Source: a virus
Lineage: Duplodnaviria > Caudoviricetes
IMG/VR virus record: IMGVR_UViG_3300005805_006958
Coordinates: 1 to 24,597 of that record
DNA: 24,597 nucleotides
Reading direction: 5' to 3' (one strand)
The position numbers and the translations under genes were made by a program. This document shows positions 3,540-22,505 of the stretch, one piece after another. Each line of letters opens with the position of its first letter. Position 1 is the stretch's first letter. The notes beneath the pieces are model-generated. The model was not told the origin of the DNA, did no database searches, and saw only the letters and a list, made by a program, of their open reading frames with translations.

Positions 3540-5299
3540 TCTCTATCAAAAATCTCACTGTTAAGAACTTCATGAGTGTGGGTAATGCCACACAAGGCAT
3601 TGACTTTGACCGTCAAGACTTTACGCTGGTGTTGGGTGAAAATTTGGACTTAGGCGGTGATGGATCACGCAACGGCACAGGCAAGACCACTATCATTAAT
3701 GCACTGAGTTATGCCATGTACGGGCAAGCACTGTCAAACATTCGCAAGGACAACCTTGTGAACAAGACCAATGCCAAGAACATGATGGTCAGTCTGGACT
3801 TCTCTGTCAACAGCAAAAATTATCGCATTGAACGTGGGCGCAAGCCCAATGTGTTGCGTTTCTTTGTTGACAGTGAACAAGTCACTGCACAGGATGATGC
3901 ACAAGGCGACAGTCGTGAAACACAAGAAGAAATAGAACGTGTGTTTGGTATGAGCCATGACATGTTTCAACACATTGTGGCCTTGAACACATATACCCCT
4001 CCATTCCTTAGTTTAAAAGCCAATGAACAACGCACAATAATTGAACAGTTGTTGGGCATTACCTTGCTGAGTGAACGTGCCGACCGCATCAAAGAACTCA
4101 ACAAGTCAACCCGAAATGCCATATCCTCAGAAGAGTTCCGCATACGTGCTGTGCAAGAAGCCAACCGGCGTATTGAAGAACAAATAGAAAGTCTACAAAA
4201 ACGTCAACGACTGTGGCTGGCCAAGCGTGATGAAGATGTTGCAAAATTAACACAGGCCATTGCTGATCTAGAACACATAGACATTGATCGTGAAGTGCAA
4301 GCACATCGAGATTTTGAAGCATTTCACATCAAAAAGAAAGCCATCGACGAATGCAATCGTTGGATTCGCAGCATTGATTCAGATGATGCAAAACTCAACA
4401 AAACTGTTGAAAAACTAAAACGAGAAATTGAAGCACTAGACAATCATCAGTGTTATGCCTGTGGTCAAGATCTACATGATACCAAACAAGATGAAATACG
4501 TGTGACCAAACAAGACACTTTGCAAGAAACTGCGCTACAATTGTTGGCCAATGACACACAGCGCATGGAACATCAAAGCCAATTGGCCAAACTGGGAGAA
4601 CTAGGCACAGCACCCACGGTGTTCTACGACACCTTAGAACATGCATTAAATCATCGCAACACTGTGGAAACATTGCGCAAAGATCTAAACACAAGAACCA
4701 CAGATGCAGATCCTTATGACGAACAAATTGCAGACATGCAAGTACAGGCCTTACAGATTGTGAGTTATGATCATCTAAATGACCTTACCAGAATACAAGA
4801 CCATCAAGAGTTTTTGCTAAAGTTGCTCACCAGCAAGGACAGTTTTGTTCGCAAGAAAATCATTGATCAAAACTTGAGTTATTTGAACAGCCGACTCACA
4901 TGGTACCTAGATCGAATTGGACTGCCACACACGGTAAAGTTTCAAAATGACTTGACTGTGAGCATTGAAGAACTGGGTCGCGAGCTGGACTTTGACAATT
5001 TAAGCCGTGGCGAACGTAACCGATTGATTCTCAGCATGTCATGGGCATTTAGAGATGTGTGGGAAAGTTTGTATCATCCTATCAATATATTGTTCATTGA
5101 TGAAATGATCGATTCGGGCTTAGACACACAAGGTGTGGAAAATGCACTAGCCTTGTTGAAGAAAATGACACGTGAACGAAACAAAAGTATTTGGCTTGTA
5201 TCGCATAGAGATGAACTTACCAGTCGTGTGGAAAACATCTTGCGTGTAGTCAAAGAAAATGGATTTACCAGTTACAACACGGACATAGAAGTTGTTTAA
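3536..5299 (+). CDS. gp46: Recombination endonuclease ATPase subunit, T4 gp46 / SbcC / Rad50-like
   Basis: Walker A (RNGTGKTT), coiled coil with zinc hook CYACG, signature LSRGE, Walker B ILFIDE, SH motif. Confidence 0.95.
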   Translation: MISIKNLTVKNFMSVGNATQGIDFDRQDFTLVLGENLDLGGDGSRNGTGKTTIINALSYAMYGQALSNIRKDNLVNKTNAKNMMVSLDFSVNSKNYRIERGRKPNVLRFFVDSEQVTAQDDAQGDSRETQEEIERVFGMSHDMFQHIVALNTYTPPFLSLKANEQRTIIEQLLGITLLSERADRIKELNKSTRNAISSEEFRIRAVQEANRRIEEQIESLQKRQRLWLAKRDEDVAKLTQAIADLEHIDIDREVQAHRDFEAFHIKKKAIDECNRWIRSIDSDDAKLNKTVEKLKREIEALDNHQCYACGQDLHDTKQDEIRVTKQDTLQETALQLLANDTQRMEHQSQLAKLGELGTAPTVFYDTLEHALNHRNTVETLRKDLNTRTTDADPYDEQIADMQVQALQIVSYDHLNDLTRIQDHQEFLLKLLTSKDSFVRKKIIDQNLSYLNSRLTWYLDRIGLPHTVKFQNDLTVSIEELGRELDFDNLSRGERNRLILSMSWAFRDVWESLYHPINILFIDEMIDSGLDTQGVENALALLKKMTRERNKSIWLVSHRDELTSRVENILRVVKENGFTSYNTDIEVV

Positions 5300-6386
5300 T
5301 TTTCACAGCATTAATGAATATCAAATTGAGATTACCTCATATTGCAATGCTGCTTGCCCACAATGTCCACGCAACCATTTAGGAGTGGGTGTTAACCCCT
5401 ACATGCCGCTTGCACATTTGTCACGTGCTGTAATTGATCAAACATTTGACACAGAACTTTGTCAACGTTTAAAGCAAGTGTTTTTCTGTGGCAGTTATGG
5501 CGATCCCATAATGCACCCAGACTTTTTGGACGTCTTGCGTGACTTTAGAAGCAAAAGTCCTCGACTATGGTTGTACATACACACCAATGGTGGTGTGCAT
5601 GAATCAGACTATTGGGCAGAAATAGCCCGCATCATGAACGGCTATGGTCAGATAGACTTTGGCATCGATGGCCTGGCTGATACTTTACATCTGTACAGAA
5701 AAAATGTAAAATACAGCAAGGCCATCAACAATGCCACAGCATTTATACGTGCAGGCGGTAGAGCACAATGGAATTTTATTGTGTTTCGGCACAATGAATA
5801 TCAGGTTGACTTGGTCCAGCAATTGGGCAAGGCTTTGGGTTTTCACCAGGTATTGATACGTAAGACTGGTAGATTTTTAAATCATACCACCATGACTGAA
5901 ATGGATTCTTGGCCTGTGGCCGGTGCAGAGCATGTGTTACAACCGCCCAGCAATGAGCAATATAGAAATCGCAGCATGCAGTACTTGCCTGAATTAAAGA
6001 AACAACACACAAACATCAAAGAATATTTTGACTCTACTGCTATACAGTGCGATGCACTAGCAGGCAAAAAAGTGGCCATCAATGCGGAAGGTGTAGTATT
6101 GCCTTGTAATTTTTTCAATCACAATCTCTATGATGCTAGATTTAGAGATGGATCATTGCCCGGCGCCAATGCACTGAGCATGGTCAATGGTCAAAATCAA
6201 GTGCGTGAGTTTTTGGAACGGTATGGATTGCACAATCTAAACATTCACAACCGATCATTGCCAGAAATATTTGCCAATGACTTTTGGTCAGACCTTGTGG
6301 CATCGTTTGACAACAGTAGCAGGCTGTTTGAATGTGCCATGACCTGTGGTGAAAAGTTTACAAAAGTATGGGATCAATCACGATGA
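5292..6386 (+). CDS. Radical SAM protein with C-terminal SPASM/twitch-like domain
   Basis: CNAACPQC; CGSYGDP; HTNGG; IDGL; C-terminal C...GVVLPC...CAMTCG. TTG start overlapping the gp46 stop. Confidence 0.88.
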   Translation: MFNFHSINEYQIEITSYCNAACPQCPRNHLGVGVNPYMPLAHLSRAVIDQTFDTELCQRLKQVFFCGSYGDPIMHPDFLDVLRDFRSKSPRLWLYIHTNGGVHESDYWAEIARIMNGYGQIDFGIDGLADTLHLYRKNVKYSKAINNATAFIRAGGRAQWNFIVFRHNEYQVDLVQQLGKALGFHQVLIRKTGRFLNHTTMTEMDSWPVAGAEHVLQPPSNEQYRNRSMQYLPELKKQHTNIKEYFDSTAIQCDALAGKKVAINAEGVVLPCNFFNHNLYDARFRDGSLPGANALSMVNGQNQVREFLERYGLHNLNIHNRSLPEIFANDFWSDLVASFDNSSRLFECAMTCGEKFTKVWDQSR

Positions 6387-6973
6387 AAATGCTAGTCACA
6401 GGCGGTAATCGTGGACTGGGTCTACACCTAGTGGATGTGTTTGGTGCAGACACAGTAAGTAGAGCCACAAACTTGGACATCACCAATCAACAAGCAGTCG
6501 CGCTAATTGCTCAACAAAGTTTGAATTATGATGTGTTTGTCAACAATGCATTTGACGGTCCTCCACAAGAATCTTGGGCTAACTTTGCACAAACAAACCT
6601 GTACATGGCAGTATACGACACATGGAAAGACGCTGGCAAAAATGGACATATTTTCAACATTGGTTCAGTGGGAGAACGACATATGGTTGCTGCTGAACCC
6701 AGATTTGAAACATACCGTGTGGCCAAGGCAGCACTGGCACATGCCAGTCAGCAAGGAACACAATCATTCAAACAAAATCTAGTACAGTTTCGGACCACAC
6801 TGATCACTCCTGATCGTCTGGACACAGAATTAAGTCGCAGCCGCCCAACCTGGACTGGAAATGGTATAAATTTAACAGATATCAGCAATTTTATACAATA
6901 CGCTGTCACAGTGTCCCCAAACACCGTGATAGAACAGGCAACTTTTTACGTGAACTTTAATTACAAGGCATAA
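6383..6973 (+). CDS. Short-chain dehydrogenase/reductase (SDR)
   Basis: TGGNRGLG Rossmann motif, VNNA, catalytic YRVAK (YxxxK). Start placed at 6383 (ATGA overlap with the upstream stop) rather than 6368. Confidence 0.88.
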   Translation: MKMLVTGGNRGLGLHLVDVFGADTVSRATNLDITNQQAVALIAQQSLNYDVFVNNAFDGPPQESWANFAQTNLYMAVYDTWKDAGKNGHIFNIGSVGERHMVAAEPRFETYRVAKAALAHASQQGTQSFKQNLVQFRTTLITPDRLDTELSRSRPTWTGNGINLTDISNFIQYAVTVSPNTVIEQATFYVNFNYKA

Positions 6974-6976
6974 CTA
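6969..6976 (+). promoter_or_regulatory. Possible late promoter variant (CATAACTA)
   Basis: One mismatch to the ATAAATA core seen repeatedly in this window; lies at the gene boundary upstream of the GIY-YIG gene. Confidence 0.35.
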
Positions 6977-7006: not shown

Positions 7007-7435
7007 ATGACATGGCTTTATCAAGACACCCCAGTTGAGACTTTACCTGAAGACTGTGTGGGATTTGTTTACGAAATCACAAATAATCTATCTGGACGCA
7101 AGTACATAGGCAAAAAATTAGCAAAATTTTCACGAACAACGTACAAAACAGTAAAACAAAAGAACGGCACAAAAAAGCGGAAGAAGATACGCACCAAGAT
7201 CGATAGTGATTGGCGTGAGTACTACGGGTCAAGCCCAGAATTAACCGCAGACGTAATCACTTTAGGCACCGAAAACTTCACCAGAGAGATACTCTACTAT
7301 TGCAAAAGCAAGAGTGAGTGCAGTTACATTGAGGCACGAGAGCAATTCAGTAGACGAGTATTGGAATCAACAGATTATTACAACGGCCATATACAAGTAC
7401 GTGTGCATGGCTCACACATCAAAGATAAAATTTAA
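7007..7435 (+). CDS. Small GIY-YIG family nuclease (endonuclease II/Seg-like catalytic domain only)
   Basis: GFVYEITN...RKYIGKK, YYGSS, FTREIL, EAREQ, YYNG; long Lys/Arg-rich insertion (KTVKQKNGTKKRKKIRTK). Confidence 0.8.
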   Translation: MTWLYQDTPVETLPEDCVGFVYEITNNLSGRKYIGKKLAKFSRTTYKTVKQKNGTKKRKKIRTKIDSDWREYYGSSPELTADVITLGTENFTREILYYCKSKSECSYIEAREQFSRRVLESTDYYNGHIQVRVHGSHIKDKI

Positions 7436-7440
7436 ACTCA

Positions 7441-7810
7441 ACTAACACCTAAGGTTGGCGGGCCAGTTTGCAATACCGCTGTGGAAAAACCGGGGCATAA
7501 ACCGGACACGTGACATATTGATGCACTCCCGTGGGTAAATCCCACTATCCTGAAGGGGAAGCGAGTTTGAGGCTAGAACAATAGGGCCAACGCATTGATA
7601 TAGTATGAATGTTAGCATACGAAGACACCGGCTATAAACATCTAAACACTAGGAACGAGGTTTAGAGCGCACTAGCGTATCGTGGTAGGAAGGAAAAGCA
7701 TAGAGTCCTTTAGCATACGGTGTATAATAAATTACCTACTTCCAATGTCTTGGCTGATTCAACTCACATGAAGACACAGACGGAACCGAGCAAAACGGTT
7801 CCGTCTGACT
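7441..7810 (+). ncRNA. Candidate large structured non-coding RNA (alternatively a replication-origin region)
   Basis: No credible ORF. Helices: CCGG 7490-93/7502-05; GTGGG 7531-35/CCCAC 7541-45; GTATG 7603-07/CATAC 7616-20; TCTAAAC 7641-47/GTTTAGA 7660-66; ACACCG-GCTA 7625-34/TAGC..CGGTGT 7711-23; long-range 7563-7597/7743-7765; 12-bp hairpin 7777-7807. Strand inferred from G-U compatibility and the upstream gene. Confidence 0.5.
7777..7807. repeat. Perfect 12-bp inverted repeat
   Basis: CAGACGGAACCG-agcaaaa-CGGTTCCGTCTG; no U-tract on either side; flanked by the direct repeat ACATGAA (7766-7772, 7821-7827). Confidence 0.9.
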
Positions 7811-7909
7811 AAAACAATCTACATGAATACTTTGTCGCTTCGCTCTAGAAAACAATACGTTGATGAGCACAGCGAAATCAACAGATCTCTAAGAGATCTT
7901 AAATATATG

Positions 7910-8647
7910 ATGCAAATTCCATTAACACATTACTACACCAAACACAAAAATAAAACTTTAAGTTGGGTAGATTCAGATTCAGAAGAAGCATTTCTTGAAA
8001 ATATCAAAGATCCTGAGCGTCTAGCTCAATTAAAAAAATATGGGTGGAATCAACCTGGGGCAATAACGTACCAGTTCAACAGTCAGGGATTTCGTTGTAA
8101 TGAATTTGATCATTCCCTGGGTATCATTACCATTGGTTGCAGTTTTACAGCAGGAGTTGGATTACCGTTGACTGATATATGGCCCACTATAGTGGGAAAT
8201 AAACTTGGACTATCGGTATGGAATTTAGGTATAGGTGGTGCTAGTATGGACACCTGTTTTAGATTGTTGTATCATTACATTGATCGGTTAAATGCTCAGT
8301 ATGTGTTGTTGCTTACACCACCCCCCCAAAGGTTTGAGTTGCACACTCAAGATACAGTGCTTTTTTTCCATCCCCAGTCGATAACTCATCCTATTCAACG
8401 ATGGTGGTATGAATGTGAAAGCAATGGACAATTAAATTGGTATAAAAATACTTTGGCATTGCAGCAATTGTGTCAACAGCATAAAAAACGTTTGATAATT
8501 CAGACTCCTGAAAATTCGCTGTTTGTCCTGCCACACAGAGATAAATGGCCTCCGGCACGTGATATGTTGCATGTTGGCACAGAAGCACAAGCCAAATGCG
8601 CGGATATTTTTTTAGATGCGATTAAAACTGATCAGGCCAATCTCTAA
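7910..8647 (+). CDS. SGNH/GDSL-hydrolase-like hypothetical protein
   Basis: YQFNSQGFR, GCSFTAGVG (block I-like), NLGIGGAS (block II-like), C-terminal DMLH (DxxH). Start reassigned to ATG 7907/7910 just after TAAATA (7900-7905), because the ORF-track start 7823 runs through palindromic non-coding DNA. Confidence 0.7.
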   Translation: MQIPLTHYYTKHKNKTLSWVDSDSEEAFLENIKDPERLAQLKKYGWNQPGAITYQFNSQGFRCNEFDHSLGIITIGCSFTAGVGLPLTDIWPTIVGNKLGLSVWNLGIGGASMDTCFRLLYHYIDRLNAQYVLLLTPPPQRFELHTQDTVLFFHPQSITHPIQRWWYECESNGQLNWYKNTLALQQLCQQHKKRLIIQTPENSLFVLPHRDKWPPARDMLHVGTEAQAKCADIFLDAIKTDQANL

Positions 8648-8957
8648 ACAATGCGTGTTGAATGTTTCCTGAAACAAACTGATTGAATGATTGGTGTTTG
8701 GCTTCGAGATCACCTTTGAGTGGAGCAACACGTTTGAATGCTGAGTCCATTTGGCCCATGTCACGGAACTCCATGATGATCATCCATTCAGGCATGTCTG
8801 CAATGCTGCGGAATCCCATTTTGCAACGTGTGATTCTGTAAGTTTCCATACGACCTTCTTCAATCAAATGATCAAAGAAACTCTTCATTCCCGTGACCCA
8901 GTCAATGTCAGAAATGTCGCCTTCTTTGTCTGCCCAAATTGTGTATAAGTCTGCCAT
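8622..8957 (-). CDS. Small hypothetical protein, probable dimeric alpha/beta-barrel (DUF6614-like)
   Basis: 111 aa; GGAG SD; LYTIWAD...YRITRCKMGF...EWMIIMEFRD...LFRDWPD pattern recalled from DUF6614-type proteins; last gene of the minus-strand operon. Confidence 0.6.
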   Translation of the reverse strand: MADLYTIWADKEGDISDIDWVTGMKSFFDHLIEEGRMETYRITRCKMGFRSIADMPEWMIIMEFRDMGQMDSAFKRVAPLKGDLEAKHQSFNQFVSGNIQHALFRDWPDQF

Positions 8958-8960
8958 ATT

Positions 8961-9398
8961 TTACTCCATTGGTCCTAGTATTTCAAATCCGTCTATTTCA
9001 CTTTTGTACAAGTGTGCCTGTTCAAGGTAAAGATACTTGAAGCCTCGTGCTCGGTATATGGCACACTCGGTTTTCATGGTTTCTATGCCCAGTCTCAGTC
9101 GAGGATTGTGATAGGTCCAAGCAAACTGATCGCACAGGGCATTGTGTTCATCGTAGCGTCGGATCAAACTAAATGCCACTAATTTTGCTTGATCGTAGTA
9201 GGCAATCACATCAGTCATGGGGTCGGTGTATCTACTGTCAAATATGGGCATCACACTGGCAAAATGTTTGTGAATACAATACTGTCTGTAGATGGCGTTC
9301 AACGCAGGTATGTCTGGTTGCGTCATGTAAGTCCATTCCACTGTGATTGGGTAATTGGTTTTACTCAAGTCAATTCTGGCAAACTGGTAACTGCTCAT
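8961..9398 (-). CDS. Arginyl-tRNA-protein transferase C-terminal domain-like (ATE1/Bpt GNAT-fold) protein
   Basis: YYDQAKLVAFS...FAWTYHNPRLRLGIETMKTECAIYRARGFKYLYL...YKSEIDGFE resembles the ATE_C signature (SLG...EI..A...G..Y.YLG....YK..F.P.E). ATGA overlap with the upstream gene. Confidence 0.65.
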   Translation of the reverse strand: MSSYQFARIDLSKTNYPITVEWTYMTQPDIPALNAIYRQYCIHKHFASVMPIFDSRYTDPMTDVIAYYDQAKLVAFSLIRRYDEHNALCDQFAWTYHNPRLRLGIETMKTECAIYRARGFKYLYLEQAHLYKSEIDGFEILGPME

Positions 9399-9895
9399 CT
9401 GGGATCCTGTCTATGTGTAAACAACCCAGTGAGATATTCTTCGGGCCAGTTGTGATAAAAGCCTTTGGCAGCCATTTGTTTTGCGGCTGTGTTTAACTTG
9501 CTGAGACTTTGTACCAGCACCAAAGCATACTGGCCTTGGTTCATATTCACACCGTTGACATCCTCTACAGATTCAGGATGATCTTCCAAGGCCAACAAAT
9601 CACGTGCGAGCAAAAATTCTTGGTTGGCTGACTCTATTGCTGAGTGAAAACGTGAGTATGGCCAGTCTGCAGGATCATATGCATACACAACAACTTCATA
9701 TTGCCCCATGCCCCATCTTGCGCGATTGCGCAGATCAAAGTAAGGATCAGCACCGGACAGCACTTGTATGGTGCGATTCAATCGTGCAGACCGTGCAAAC
9801 GGGCATGGGGGCCAGCCACCCAGTGCAGGGTGCGGAACTTCTACAAAGCGTTCACTCCATGTTAATATATCAGCAGTGACAGTTTCAATATCCAT
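9395..9895 (-). CDS. DUF1415-like protein (PCPFA motif)
   Basis: W...FVEVPHPALGGWPPCPFAR, EDHP, C-terminal GFYHNW. Starts immediately after the upstream TAA (TAAATG). Confidence 0.6.
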   Translation of the reverse strand: MDIETVTADILTWSERFVEVPHPALGGWPPCPFARSARLNRTIQVLSGADPYFDLRNRARWGMGQYEVVVYAYDPADWPYSRFHSAIESANQEFLLARDLLALEDHPESVEDVNGVNMNQGQYALVLVQSLSKLNTAAKQMAAKGFYHNWPEEYLTGLFTHRQDPR

Positions 9896-10126
9896 TTAAA
9901 AGTACGGTAATTTTGTTTTGCTGGTGGTTTCCATGTGGTCCTTGACCATGTCAGCAATCATGTGTCGCTCAGCAGAACTCAACTGCATGACTTGATCGTA
10001 TGTCATGCCACCGCGCATGTGCCATGCCATCTTGATACTTTCAGATCGAATTTTGTTGGCCTCCTGATCAAGTTGATCAATGTATTTGGCAACTTCATCT
10101 GCGGTTAAAATCAGGAGGCGGGTCCG
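9896..10126 (-). CDS. gp51-like / tail-chaperone C-terminal segment, probably expressed by -1 frameshift from the gp26-like ORF
   Basis: 76 codons (RTRLLILTADEV...WHMRGGMTYDQVMQLSSAER...KLPYF) in the -1 frame right after A AAT TTT TTC; no ATG/GTG/TTG for the first 32 codons. Confidence 0.7.
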   Translation of the reverse strand, partial: RTRLLILTADEVAKYIDQLDQEANKIRSESIKMAWHMRGGMTYDQVMQLSSAERHMIADMVKDHMETTSKTKLPYF

Positions 10127-10956
10127 AAAAAATTTGCCATGTCCATGCTGAGCACTTGCTCGTAGTTGGTACCGCAGGCAGTGCATTTGAGAGTCACAGG
10201 CTTGATTTCGGCTCGTTGTCTAAGACCAATGGCATGTTCTCGAATGGCGTTGAACACCATGCGATCACAGTTGTTCAAAAACTCTTCAATGTGGTCTGTA
10301 TCAGTGACCACAGCATTGGGAGTTTTTATAGCAGCAATGCTCATTTTCATTGCTTCCATGGTCAACTTAGTGATGTTTCGCATGACTTCGGCCATTTGAT
10401 CCAGTTTTTGTTCGTCTGACACATTTTCTTGCCCAGGTATCATGCGAATGATTCGTTGTTGATCAAACTGACGCAGATTGATGTCGTTCTGCTGTTCATA
10501 GGTCATGGGCTTGAAAACTATTTCCAATTCGCCAGACTGCACATGATCAGTGTAGTCGGGAAACTCCAAGGAGTCCAACACTTGTCGCAGATCTAACTCA
10601 AAATCATCTTCGTTTTTGCATTCGGTACACACAGTGTGAACTTCCATGTTGTGACCATAACTGGCAATTCTTATGCCAATCAGTATGCTGTTGATGTCAA
10701 TGAACGGTGCTGACCACGCATTTTTGATATTGGGCACACAACTGTGAATCACATTGATCACACTCTGCCCGCTGAACAGGGCGTCAGGAGTGCGATAAGT
10801 TATTTCATCCACAGCAGTCATGGGATATATGGGCAATTCTCGATTTTGCGGAAAGTCCACACTGTCTTCGGACCAAAAACTACCATTGCTGGGCAGTTTC
10901 AGATAGATTGCTGGTTGTCTAAAAAACGCTTTCAGCGGATTGGTTAACTGGGTCAT
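10111..10956 (-). CDS. gp26: T4 gp26-like baseplate hub / tail assembly chaperone
   Basis: NPLKAFFRQPAIYLKLPSNG, PMTAVDE, IRIASYG, CxxC...CxxC (CTEC, CTAC), ends in NFF; AGGTGA SD; adjacent to the tape-measure gene. Confidence 0.75.
   Translation of the reverse strand: MTQLTNPLKAFFRQPAIYLKLPSNGSFWSEDSVDFPQNRELPIYPMTAVDEITYRTPDALFSGQSVINVIHSCVPNIKNAWSAPFIDINSILIGIRIASYGHNMEVHTVCTECKNEDDFELDLRQVLDSLEFPDYTDHVQSGELEIVFKPMTYEQQNDINLRQFDQQRIIRMIPGQENVSDEQKLDQMAEVMRNITKLTMEAMKMSIAAIKTPNAVVTDTDHIEEFLNNCDRMVFNAIREHAIGLRQRAEIKPVTLKCTACGTNYEQVLSMDMANFFGPAS
10126..10135 (-). other. Tandem -1 ribosomal frameshift slippery site (A AAU UUU / U UUU UUC)
   Basis: Minus strand reads GCA AAT TTT TTC GGA CCC GCC TCC TGA: two overlapping X XXY YYZ heptamers in the correct phase, 4 codons before the stop. 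Confidence 0.65.
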
Positions 10957-19746: not shown

Positions 19747-19781
19747 GTTGGATTTGTTATGTTGGGGAAATCGCACTCTAT

Positions 19782-19789
19782 CATAAATA
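19782..19789 (+). promoter_or_regulatory. Late promoter (CATAAATA)
   Basis: 5 nt upstream of ATG 19795. Confidence 0.65.
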
Positions 19790-19794
19790 ACTGC

Positions 19795-20418
19795 ATGAAA
19801 CCCTACACTTATCTAATCAAACATCGCCCTACCGGTAAAGTCTATTATGGATATCGTTCTGCTAATAAAGTAGAACCTGCTGAAGATTTATGGAAAAAAT
19901 ATTTTACCAGTAGTCCTAAAATTCAACAACTTATCGAAGAAACTGGTATTGATAGTTTTGATGTAGAAGTACGACAAGTCTTTGAAACTAAACAACAAGC
20001 AAGTGCATGGGAAACTAAAGTTCTTCAACGTTGCAAAGTGTTAACTAATGAACGTTGGATCAATCAAAATATTGCTGGATATGTTATACCAACAGAAGAA
20101 TCTAATAAAAAAATAAGTGCATATTGGAAAGGTAAACCTAAGGGCAAAGAACAAATAGAAAAAATTAGACAATCAAATATAGGCAAAAATAAAGGAAAAA
20201 TTCAAACGGTAGAACACCGACTCAAAAATTCAGAAGCCAACAAAGGTTCTAATAATCCTCGCTATGGGGTAGAAGTATCAGAAGAAACCCGCCGGAGGAT
20301 TAGTGAAGCCAAAAAAGGCAAGCAAGTTGCGCACAACAAAGGTAAGCCCATGAGTGAAGAACAAAAAGCAAAAATACGGGCCACTCTTGCCGCCAAGAAA
20401 AATCAGATCAAACCTTGA
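19795..20418 (+). CDS. Free-standing GIY-YIG homing endonuclease (Seg-like) with NUMOD3-type DNA-binding repeats
   Basis: PYTYLIKHRPTGKVYYGYR, YFTSS, WE..VL, WIN; C-terminal repeats (SEETRRRISEAKKGK, MSEEQKAKIR); AT-rich; overlaps the convergent gene end. Start set at ATG 19795. Confidence 0.88.
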   Translation: MKPYTYLIKHRPTGKVYYGYRSANKVEPAEDLWKKYFTSSPKIQQLIEETGIDSFDVEVRQVFETKQQASAWETKVLQRCKVLTNERWINQNIAGYVIPTEESNKKISAYWKGKPKGKEQIEKIRQSNIGKNKGKIQTVEHRLKNSEANKGSNNPRYGVEVSEETRRRISEAKKGKQVAHNKGKPMSEEQKAKIRATLAAKKNQIKP

Positions 20419-21624: not shown

Positions 21625-21719
21625 CATAAATACTTGTCAACGCAATTCTGCGTTTTATGCGGTTTAACCCACCGCGTACGGACTAGAACTCCGATCGGAC
21701 TTCTTTAAGGAGAAACAAA
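21625..21719 (+). promoter_or_regulatory. Late promoter CATAAATA followed by a structured ~80-nt 5' leader
   Basis: Hairpins AACGCA/TGCGTT (21639-54), TATGCGGT/ACCGCGTA (21656-78), CGGA/TCCG (21679-93); AAGGAG SD at 21707-12. Confidence 0.65.
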
Positions 21720-22505
21720 ATGGGACGTCCTCTTAAAATACAAAAAACAAGCACAGGATCTGGCAATGGCGGCGCAGCCGTTGGTGTGGATCTTGGTTTT
21801 CCTAACTTTGGATCATTGACTGCACCAGTTGTCAACACTGCCAACACACTCAACGCCACTGAATATCTAGGCGTGGTGGGCGGTGCAGCACCCACTGATG
21901 CACCCTCAGCAACCAATCCCAGAGTTGATGTCACTGTCAACATTGCTGCACCTGATGGTTCAGGTATTGGTGTAGCACAAGGCTACATCATACGCCAAAA
22001 AGGCAGCCACAAATATCTAGTGGGCGATGCCACCGGTGTCAATGACGGTTCATTTGTTGTGGGCCAAGCCTATCAAATCAGCACTGTTGGCACAACCACT
22101 GACTGGCCTGCTGCTGGTGCACCTGCCAACTATGGCCTGGGCACTGTGTTCACAGCAACCTCAGTGGGCGGAGCCGGCAACGGTGCAGCCAACTCAGTGG
22201 GCGTGTGTGTGCTGGACGATGATGTCACACCTGCTGCAGGGCTCATGGCCATTACATTCACTACAGGTGATAGTACAGCCACCACTGTCAGCAAACTTAC
22301 CAACAAGTTCTTGCTGGACTGGACTGGCGGATCAACCTATGCAGCCACTTCGGTGATTGCAGACAAACGCTATGTGACCAACTTCTTCACCGACGAAGGC
22401 ACAGTGATCAAGTCAGGAACCACTGGCGGTGCCAACACAGGCACTGTGGCTGGCGGACAACAAAATCTGTTGGATCTGGCCATTGTGGACAACGTTACTT
22501 CTTAA
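21720..22505 (+). CDS. Putative virion structural protein (Gly/Thr/Ala-rich, beta-rich)
   Basis: Strong SD, late promoter, downstream terminator; composition typical of decoration/fibre proteins; YIIRQKGSHKYLV motif. Confidence 0.7.
   Translation: MGRPLKIQKTSTGSGNGGAAVGVDLGFPNFGSLTAPVVNTANTLNATEYLGVVGGAAPTDAPSATNPRVDVTVNIAAPDGSGIGVAQGYIIRQKGSHKYLVGDATGVNDGSFVVGQAYQISTVGTTTDWPAAGAPANYGLGTVFTATSVGGAGNGAANSVGVCVLDDDVTPAAGLMAITFTTGDSTATTVSKLTNKFLLDWTGGSTYAATSVIADKRYVTNFFTDEGTVIKSGTTGGANTGTVAGGQQNLLDLAIVDNVTS

Follow-up and report, generated by a model that had tools for sequence, protein, structure and literature searches.

What does a giant phage keep in the one long stretch without an open reading frame (ORF) of an otherwise gene-dense region? 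The window, by which we mean the whole 24,597-nt stretch of DNA analysed here, is a 24.6-kb piece of a large T4-like phage with gp47/gp46-like genes, portal, protease and major capsid, and belongs to a giant freshwater phage whose relatives have genomes of 330–350 kb. An earlier note on the sequence had pointed to a single long ORF-free stretch, which is borne out: the gap at 7436–7822 measures 387 nt, the next longest in the window 96 nt. We find that 7442–7827 is a conserved structured element of aquatic phages, larger than first reported. As a single-copy candidate origin, the element bears on how uncultured large T4-like phages start replication; our analysis leads us to lean towards a ColE1-RNA-II-like role, in which an RNA primes replication and, judging from the sequence, likely holds on to the DNA it was transcribed from so that copying of the genome can begin.

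6970..6976, + strand: late-promoter-like heptamer before the nuclease gene, one of seven such motifs in the window
7007..7435, + strand: SegE-type GIY-YIG gene (PF19835, phrog_447), 142 aa, a usual but dispensable neighbour of the element
7442..7827, + strand: whole class-A structured element, from 5′ kissing strand to second repeat, ~390 nt

The majority of the late-promoter-like motifs lie just 5′ of gene starts. A transcript that starts from the heptamer at 6970..6976, which we take to resemble the T4 late promoter, and runs through the nuclease gene probably includes the element RNA as its 3′ portion. A PDB search with the nuclease returned no significant match.

A conserved pseudoknotted RNA with a revised fold

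A 5′ pattern search returned 119 viral loci, which together with nuclease-linked loci gave 60 full-length sequences including the window. Fifty of these were kept at <95% identity and one (L089, with an internal deletion) was dropped, leaving an alignment, A1, of 49 homologues that are 57–87% identical to the window. Taken alone, the window sequence folds only mildly better than its shuffles (z = −2.1, with 2 of 100 shuffles as good). The motifs listed in the earlier note are all present at or near its coordinates, and of its fold the inner helices and the pseudoknot are kept, while the outer half of the architecture is wrong. In A1, GCTA/TAGC is 85% paired with two-sided changes at three of four pairs, TCTAAAC/GTTTAGA 84% (five of seven), CGC/GCG 74% (three of three), AGGA/TCCT 99.5% (two of four) and the pseudoknot GTAGG/CCTAC 100% (two of five). 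Of the proposed 12-bp 3′ hairpin the 6-bp core is supported (99.7% paired, one of six pairs two-sided), and in the closing helix ACACCG-GCTA it is the GCTA part that holds, the ACACCG/CGGTGT part falling in indel-rich columns with a poor column score. The outer stack (7563–77/7748–65), CATTG/CAATG and the long-range GTTGGC/GCCAAC are together no better paired than shuffled sequences (70.2% compared to 70.7%), with 2 of 25 pairs two-sided, and outer-stack strand 7563–70 is a gap in 36 of the 49 homologues. The 3′ limit had also been set too short, with the second repeat (7821–27) and a hairpin cluster (7835–7899) lying beyond it. The fold that we draw instead has the following parts.

7442..7620, + strand: 5′ domain, with kissing pseudoknot 7442–47/7610–15 plus helices
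7456–61/7476–81, 7481–83/7507–09, 7490–93/7502–05 and 7603–07/7616–20, + strand: helices of the 5′ domain
7515–21/7595–7601, + strand: helix enclosing a variable insert in the 5′ domain, absent from the earlier fold
7625..7755, + strand: 3′ core, a multiloop closed by 7625–34/7711–23
7641–47/7660–66, + strand: 3′-core stem with near-invariant loop GGAAC (7652–56)
7668–77, + strand: variable arm of the 3′ core
7691–94/7706–09, + strand: 3′-core stem with conserved loop
7685–89/7735–39, + strand: 3′-core pseudoknot

On A1, 95.4% of the cells of the revised fold are paired and 32 of its 68 pairs show two-sided changes, a result that none of 500 shuffles reaches and for which slid controls give 36–41%; because the fold was drawn by eye from A1 itself, these scores lean in its favour. 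The outcome is the same in a second set, selected by a 3′ pattern that left the 5′ sequence free and sharing some members with A1 (78 full-length elements, 65 of them non-redundant); here helix 7456–61/7476–81, held constant by the first, 5′ pattern, shows compensation as well. The kissing helix 7442–47/7610–15, missed in the earlier note, is paired in 294 of 294 cells with two-sided changes at four of six pairs, so that there are two covarying pseudoknots, this new one and the one already proposed at 7685–89/7735–39. As G-U cells outnumber A-C cells by 284 to 9 when read on the + strand, the + strand is the folded one. Covariation, this G-U excess and the lack of any Rfam match together support the earlier claim of a large pseudoknotted functional RNA outside Rfam.

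The 3′ arm of a further hairpin, 7797–7809, is near-invariant and complementary both to its hairpin partner and to core loops 7652–56 and 7701–04; with complementarity but no two-sided changes to go by, we consider it a possible folding switch. Four candidate loop pairings (7652–55/7740–43, 7652–56/7798–7802, 7701–04/7804–07 and 7703–05/7763–65) are near-invariant, and covariation therefore cannot choose among them. A pairing 7462–66/7749–54 was rejected as weak, with an uncompensated change at 7461.

The class-A element matches no Rfam 15 family (best E = 5, chance level), as the earlier note had anticipated, and ARAGORN reports no tRNA or tmRNA in the gap. For Polynucleobacter-1 (RF01718; gathering 37 bits) there is no match at E ≤ 10 in window positions 7400–7950. 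A group I or II intron does not fit an element that sits in the gap from a stop codon to the following ORF, interrupts no gene and has no Rfam intron match. Nor do we find a retron msr-msd, as reverse transcriptase PF00078 occurs in none of five near-complete genomes (controls positive in 3 of 14), or an RNA-guided nuclease module, with no obligate linkage or matching variation of nuclease and RNA. Our literature search, which covered its sources in part, found no description of this RNA; the alignments supplementing PMC10690425 (Fremin 2023) could hold it, and the portion of those supplementary files that was searched has no match for the element motifs. By blastn, classes A and C and an L822 variant have no meaningful match among cultured phages, and thus no cultured carrier was found, and classes A and B have none among plasmids. 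Three matches in genome contigs fall on 73–335 kb contigs in metagenome bins with the same gp46–nuclease context, which we read from that context as binned phage.

Element classes share a repeated 3′ end

Behind nucleases 73–95% identical to that of the window stands a class A, B or C element, sometimes after an inserted gene. Seven short loci were set aside; of the 73 that extend 400 nt or more past the nuclease, 72 have an element of some class, the exception being L033. Class-C loci L001, L021 and L073, close relatives with their element at this site, score 107–120 bits for RF01718, a motif that makes up the 5′ half (~135 nt) of class C. In profile comparisons, B and C share their 3′ halves and A shares only the end, weakly and over the last ~45 nt with C; some marine class-A relatives have a swapped 5′ domain (L266, L273, L301, L308, L311, L331 and others). 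The element RNAs are modular and interchangeable. Such mosaics further include L285 and L375, with the class-A 3′ core and another 5′ domain, and L040 and L047, with a B-like 5′ part on a different core.

7766..7772, + strand: direct repeat copy 1, ACATGAA, after conserved ACTC
7777..7809, + strand: hairpin between the repeats, with the near-invariant 3′ arm
7821..7827, + strand: direct repeat copy 2, ACATGAA, after conserved ATCT

Every class ends in CTC and a 7-mer, a hairpin, TGAC, and TCT and the 7-mer again. An unbiased mutual-information scan of A1 ranked the column pair 7772/7827 third and 7770/7825 thirteenth, both linked by identity rather than complementarity. Surveying this arrangement gave 355 modules, one of which (L345) was dropped for want of an anchor, and the two copies are identical in 350 of the remaining 354 distinct modules (136 of 138 in class A, 100 of 101 in B and 114 of 115 in C), compared to means of 64, 26 and 20, respectively, for permuted pairings under the same best-match selection. 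These modules hold 24 different 7-mers, with the copies 47–68 nt apart. Mapped on a tree of 132 class-A cores, copy 1 changes 39 times and copy 2 38 times, yet 40 joint changes account for both. With so many 7-mers and concerted change, it is the sameness of the copies that is selected, not one particular sequence. Identity drops at position +8, and the three bases before the repeats (CTC versus TCT) never match each other.

What the copies pair with is narrowed by a search for Watson–Crick complements of the 7-mer, which occur in 0 of 354 modules over the 400 nt upstream and the spacer between the copies, and in 7 of 354 downstream; this leaves the template strand as the natural common partner. 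Wobble patterns are suggestive of RNA copy 1 pairing with the template of copy 2: in that direction position +8 is pairable in 318 of 354 modules (104 in the reverse) and +9 in 309 (238 in the reverse). This direction is only suggestive because positions −5 and +10 have no directional bias, +8 is a nearly fixed G in copy 1 and the modules are related. In the four mismatched modules, two of the mismatches would be rG-dT wobbles for RNA copy 1 on the copy-2 template and two would not.

A hairpin cluster follows the second repeat

7835..7899, + strand: hairpin cluster, read as single-stranded DNA, candidate primosome or helicase loading site
7835–45, + strand: alternative pairing partner in the cluster
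7859–7882, + strand: GA-internal-loop hairpin
7883–7899, + strand: perfect hairpin

A GA-loop hairpin stands on the sense strand in 323 of 347 modules, compared to 12 on the antisense strand and 2.5 in shuffled sequences, at a median of 41 nt after repeat copy 2. Run over the whole of ColE1, the same detector finds a single site, on the RNA II sense strand and downstream of two G6 runs. It is negative behind the elements of two complete small phages, G007 and G010, and in 9 of 12 small-phage modules, where other hairpins stand, and it also misses the phiX174 F–G intergenic stretch.

Carriers range from giant to small phages

There is one module per genome in all five near-complete genomes (G001, G003, G004, G007 and G010). 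G007 and G010 are complete (100%) phages of 30–31 kb, and comparison of their 70 ATG ORFs of at least 60 aa with PHROG and Pfam recognises no replication gene, be it for a polymerase, helicase, primase or initiator, and no integrase; searches for PolB and DnaB were negative too. As 41 of the 70 ORFs have no PHROG match, an unknown initiator is possible in these phages, which may also be satellites that borrow the replisome of a helper. They share the class-A element with giant T4-like phages. The three giant phages encode their own PolB and DnaB; a search for the T4 RNase H family had no match anywhere, controls included. GC and AT skew in the three giant genomes tracks the orientation of the genes and does not turn at the element, and in G007 and G010 all genes are co-oriented, so that skew is uninformative there.

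In the small-phage clade, class A is present in 11 of the 29 loci that reach 4 kb or more upstream of terminase, and among 23 terminase-linked loci none has a replication gene in place of the element. Several other terminase-linked loci hold different long non-coding elements (L767:2762–3512, L822:2460–2920, L799:6974–7663, L784:706–1332, L813:1201–1951, L821:301–786 and L754:1712–2136); several of these have similar hairpins behind them, and none has an Rfam match at gathering. Those of L767 and L822 start with a class-A-like 5′ hairpin, and that of L767 has a 9-nt direct repeat.

In RNA libraries, contigs from relatives (80–95% identity) cover the element in X3, X5, X6, X9 and X20, partly in X7 and not in X8 or X13, and two bridge the nuclease stop codon into the element; contigs of this kind are silent on strand, ends and level, and may derive from DNA in the libraries.

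A candidate RNA-primed replication origin

The fold with its + strand polarity, the concerted repeats, the single copy, the downstream hairpins and the presence in small phages without recognisable replication genes are the observations from which we assemble a possible mechanism. RNA polymerase would transcribe through the nuclease gene into the element, whose core would fold. The 7777–7807 hairpin would then loop out the spacer, so that copy 1 of the RNA (7766–72) meets the copy-2 (7821–27) template and pairs with it over 7–9 bases. This seed would keep the following transcript hybridised as an R-loop, and the displaced sense strand would fold the 7835–7899 hairpins and load a primosome or helicase. 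Finally, the RNA end, perhaps trimmed by RNase H, would prime leading-strand synthesis by the phage family-B polymerase or, in small phages, by host enzymes. Against such an origin count the lack of a skew turn in the three giant genomes, the lack of profile similarity to ColE1 RNA II, the negative GA-hairpin results in small phages and the lack of a relative with a replication gene replacing the element.

In ColE1, a long transcript is described as forming a persistent hybrid by rG/dC pairing, being trimmed by RNase H and priming Pol I, while the displaced strand loads the primosome (PMC5043065, PMC4412123, PMC3167613); pairing of the rG stretch with the template dC stretch is described as essential for the R-loop (PMC4412123). 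Like RNA II, the element would give a long folded transcript with an upstream segment repeated downstream and so able to pair with the template, in ColE1 the two G6 runs at L253:928 and 1175. A direct repeat of this kind is present in the 350 modules with identical copies, and from it we infer the pairing. Further on along the same strand, ColE1 has a GA-loop hairpin at L253:1327–44, ~150 nt past the second G6 run, which we take to be the pas site region; most modules have such a hairpin in a similar place, but 9 of 12 small-phage modules do not. The element differs in that its repeat is a freely varying 7-mer ~55 nt apart, whereas that of ColE1 is a G run ~250 nt apart, and in its occurrence in lytic-type phages, three of which encode PolB and DnaB. 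Profiles of A, B and C compared with ColE1 by nhmmer give no match below E 0.35. If the pairing holds, the element would work like RNA II; it belongs neither to the ColE1 family nor to RF01718. Class C, which carries Polynucleobacter-1 at its 5′ end, ends in the same repeat–hairpin–repeat module as class A; the Rfam model excludes the repeats, and in the sources covered in part by our search Polynucleobacter-1 appears only in PMC2864571. T4 oriF and oriG are described as R-loop origins that use a middle promoter plus an unwinding element (PMC4412123). They resemble the element in belonging to a T4-like phage and in that a persistently hybridised transcript would prime the phage replisome, but the available part of that source describes for them no large pseudoknotted RNA or concerted repeats, both features of the element.

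A broader proposal, which we hold more tentatively, is that a modular, protein-free replicon is common to aquatic phages of 30 kb to 350 kb and consists of interchangeable pseudoknotted RNAs with a freely variable 7-nt self-guide, and we regard it with similar reserve that these RNAs (A, A′, B, C with Polynucleobacter-1, and more) dock their own 3′ end, invade the template and prime replication. If so, the initiator would be an RNA without sequence relationship to ColE1 RNA II, and small phages would manage without any replication gene. A second, independent family of RNA replication primers would then stand beside ColE1 RNA II, and the orphan Polynucleobacter-1 motif would gain a function. 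Even if the element is no origin, this new RNA of ~390 nt has two covarying pseudoknots and a repeat pair under selection for nothing but identity, which points to a mechanism of RNA–DNA pairing.

Alternative explanations

The same re-pairing of RNA copy 1 with the copy-2 template could serve transcription instead, by stalling, terminating or realigning RNA polymerase at the end of the gp47–gp46–nuclease operon, with no role in replication. The 7–9 nt match is about the length of the hybrid in RNA polymerase, the element lies near the end of this + strand operon, ~0.8 kb before convergent genes, and the sister motif Polynucleobacter-1 is listed as possibly cis-regulatory in a table of Weinberg 2010 (PMC2864571). 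We nevertheless think transcription control unlikely, as there is no U-tract terminator at the element, flanking genes vary widely among loci, and the strand-specific hairpin cluster and strict single copy would be left unexplained.

Slightly less probable is a signal at the level of DNA, in which sense-strand copy 1 slips onto the copy-2 template, the hairpin is extruded and a bubble opens for packaging, recombination or helicase loading, with the RNA only helping the opening. Slipped-strand pairing predicts the same concerted repeats, and the element sits 3–5 kb upstream of the terminase gene in small phages and adjoins gp46/47 in giant ones. However, upstream lie ~330 nt whose pseudoknotted fold, covarying and rich in G-U, has the character of RNA, and the module occurs both in T4-like phages and in small ones, whose packaging genes are very different.

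The "ribozyme-sized" reading of the earlier note finds no tested evidence that points to catalysis. Size, several pseudoknots and invariant loops would suit a ribozyme or splicing remnant whose repeats are cleavage, ligation or circularisation sites, and two identical sites would suit a shared guide, but we judge this improbable: the RNA has no guide complementary to the 7-mer (0 of 354 upstream), no Rfam ribozyme or intron matches, no gene is interrupted, no joints cross the element in eight RNA runs (of low depth) and none of the five genomes has a reverse transcriptase.

Least probable is that the RNA serves the GIY-YIG protein as partner or guide, or that the repeats are tandem sites for a binding protein: the nuclease gene is directly upstream in most giant-phage loci, but the association is positional only, as the complete 30-kb phage G007 has the RNA and no phrog_447 gene (G010 has both), phages Melnitz and ACP17 encode the protein and lack the element, nucleases 92–95% identical to that of the window go with A, B or C and different 7-mers, and a degenerate binding site would not force identical copies.

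Other features of the window and its relatives

ORF 7823–8647 (+) has its first ATG within the second repeat, and the hairpin cluster covers part of its opening ~28 codons; it has no Pfam, PHROG or NCBIfam match, and its true start is likely at 7907/7910. Behind the baseplate-hub gene, 8622–10186 (−) holds four small genes, one with DUF6614. Three radical SAM genes (two with SPASM) and a short-chain dehydrogenase lie among gp47/gp46, at 42–2496 and 5292–6973 (+). A second GIY-YIG gene, 19759–20418 (+), stands directly behind the major capsid gene; it has NUMOD3 repeats and is a typical free-standing homing endonuclease. Before ORF 21720, freshwater-2 RNA (Rfam RF02980) matches at 21638–21722 (+) with 70.8 bits, above gathering. 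In most elements AGGCA, often in multiple copies, occurs just 5′ of the RNA start (for example, in L082, L256 and L767); in the window it is absent directly before the element and present before the nuclease gene.
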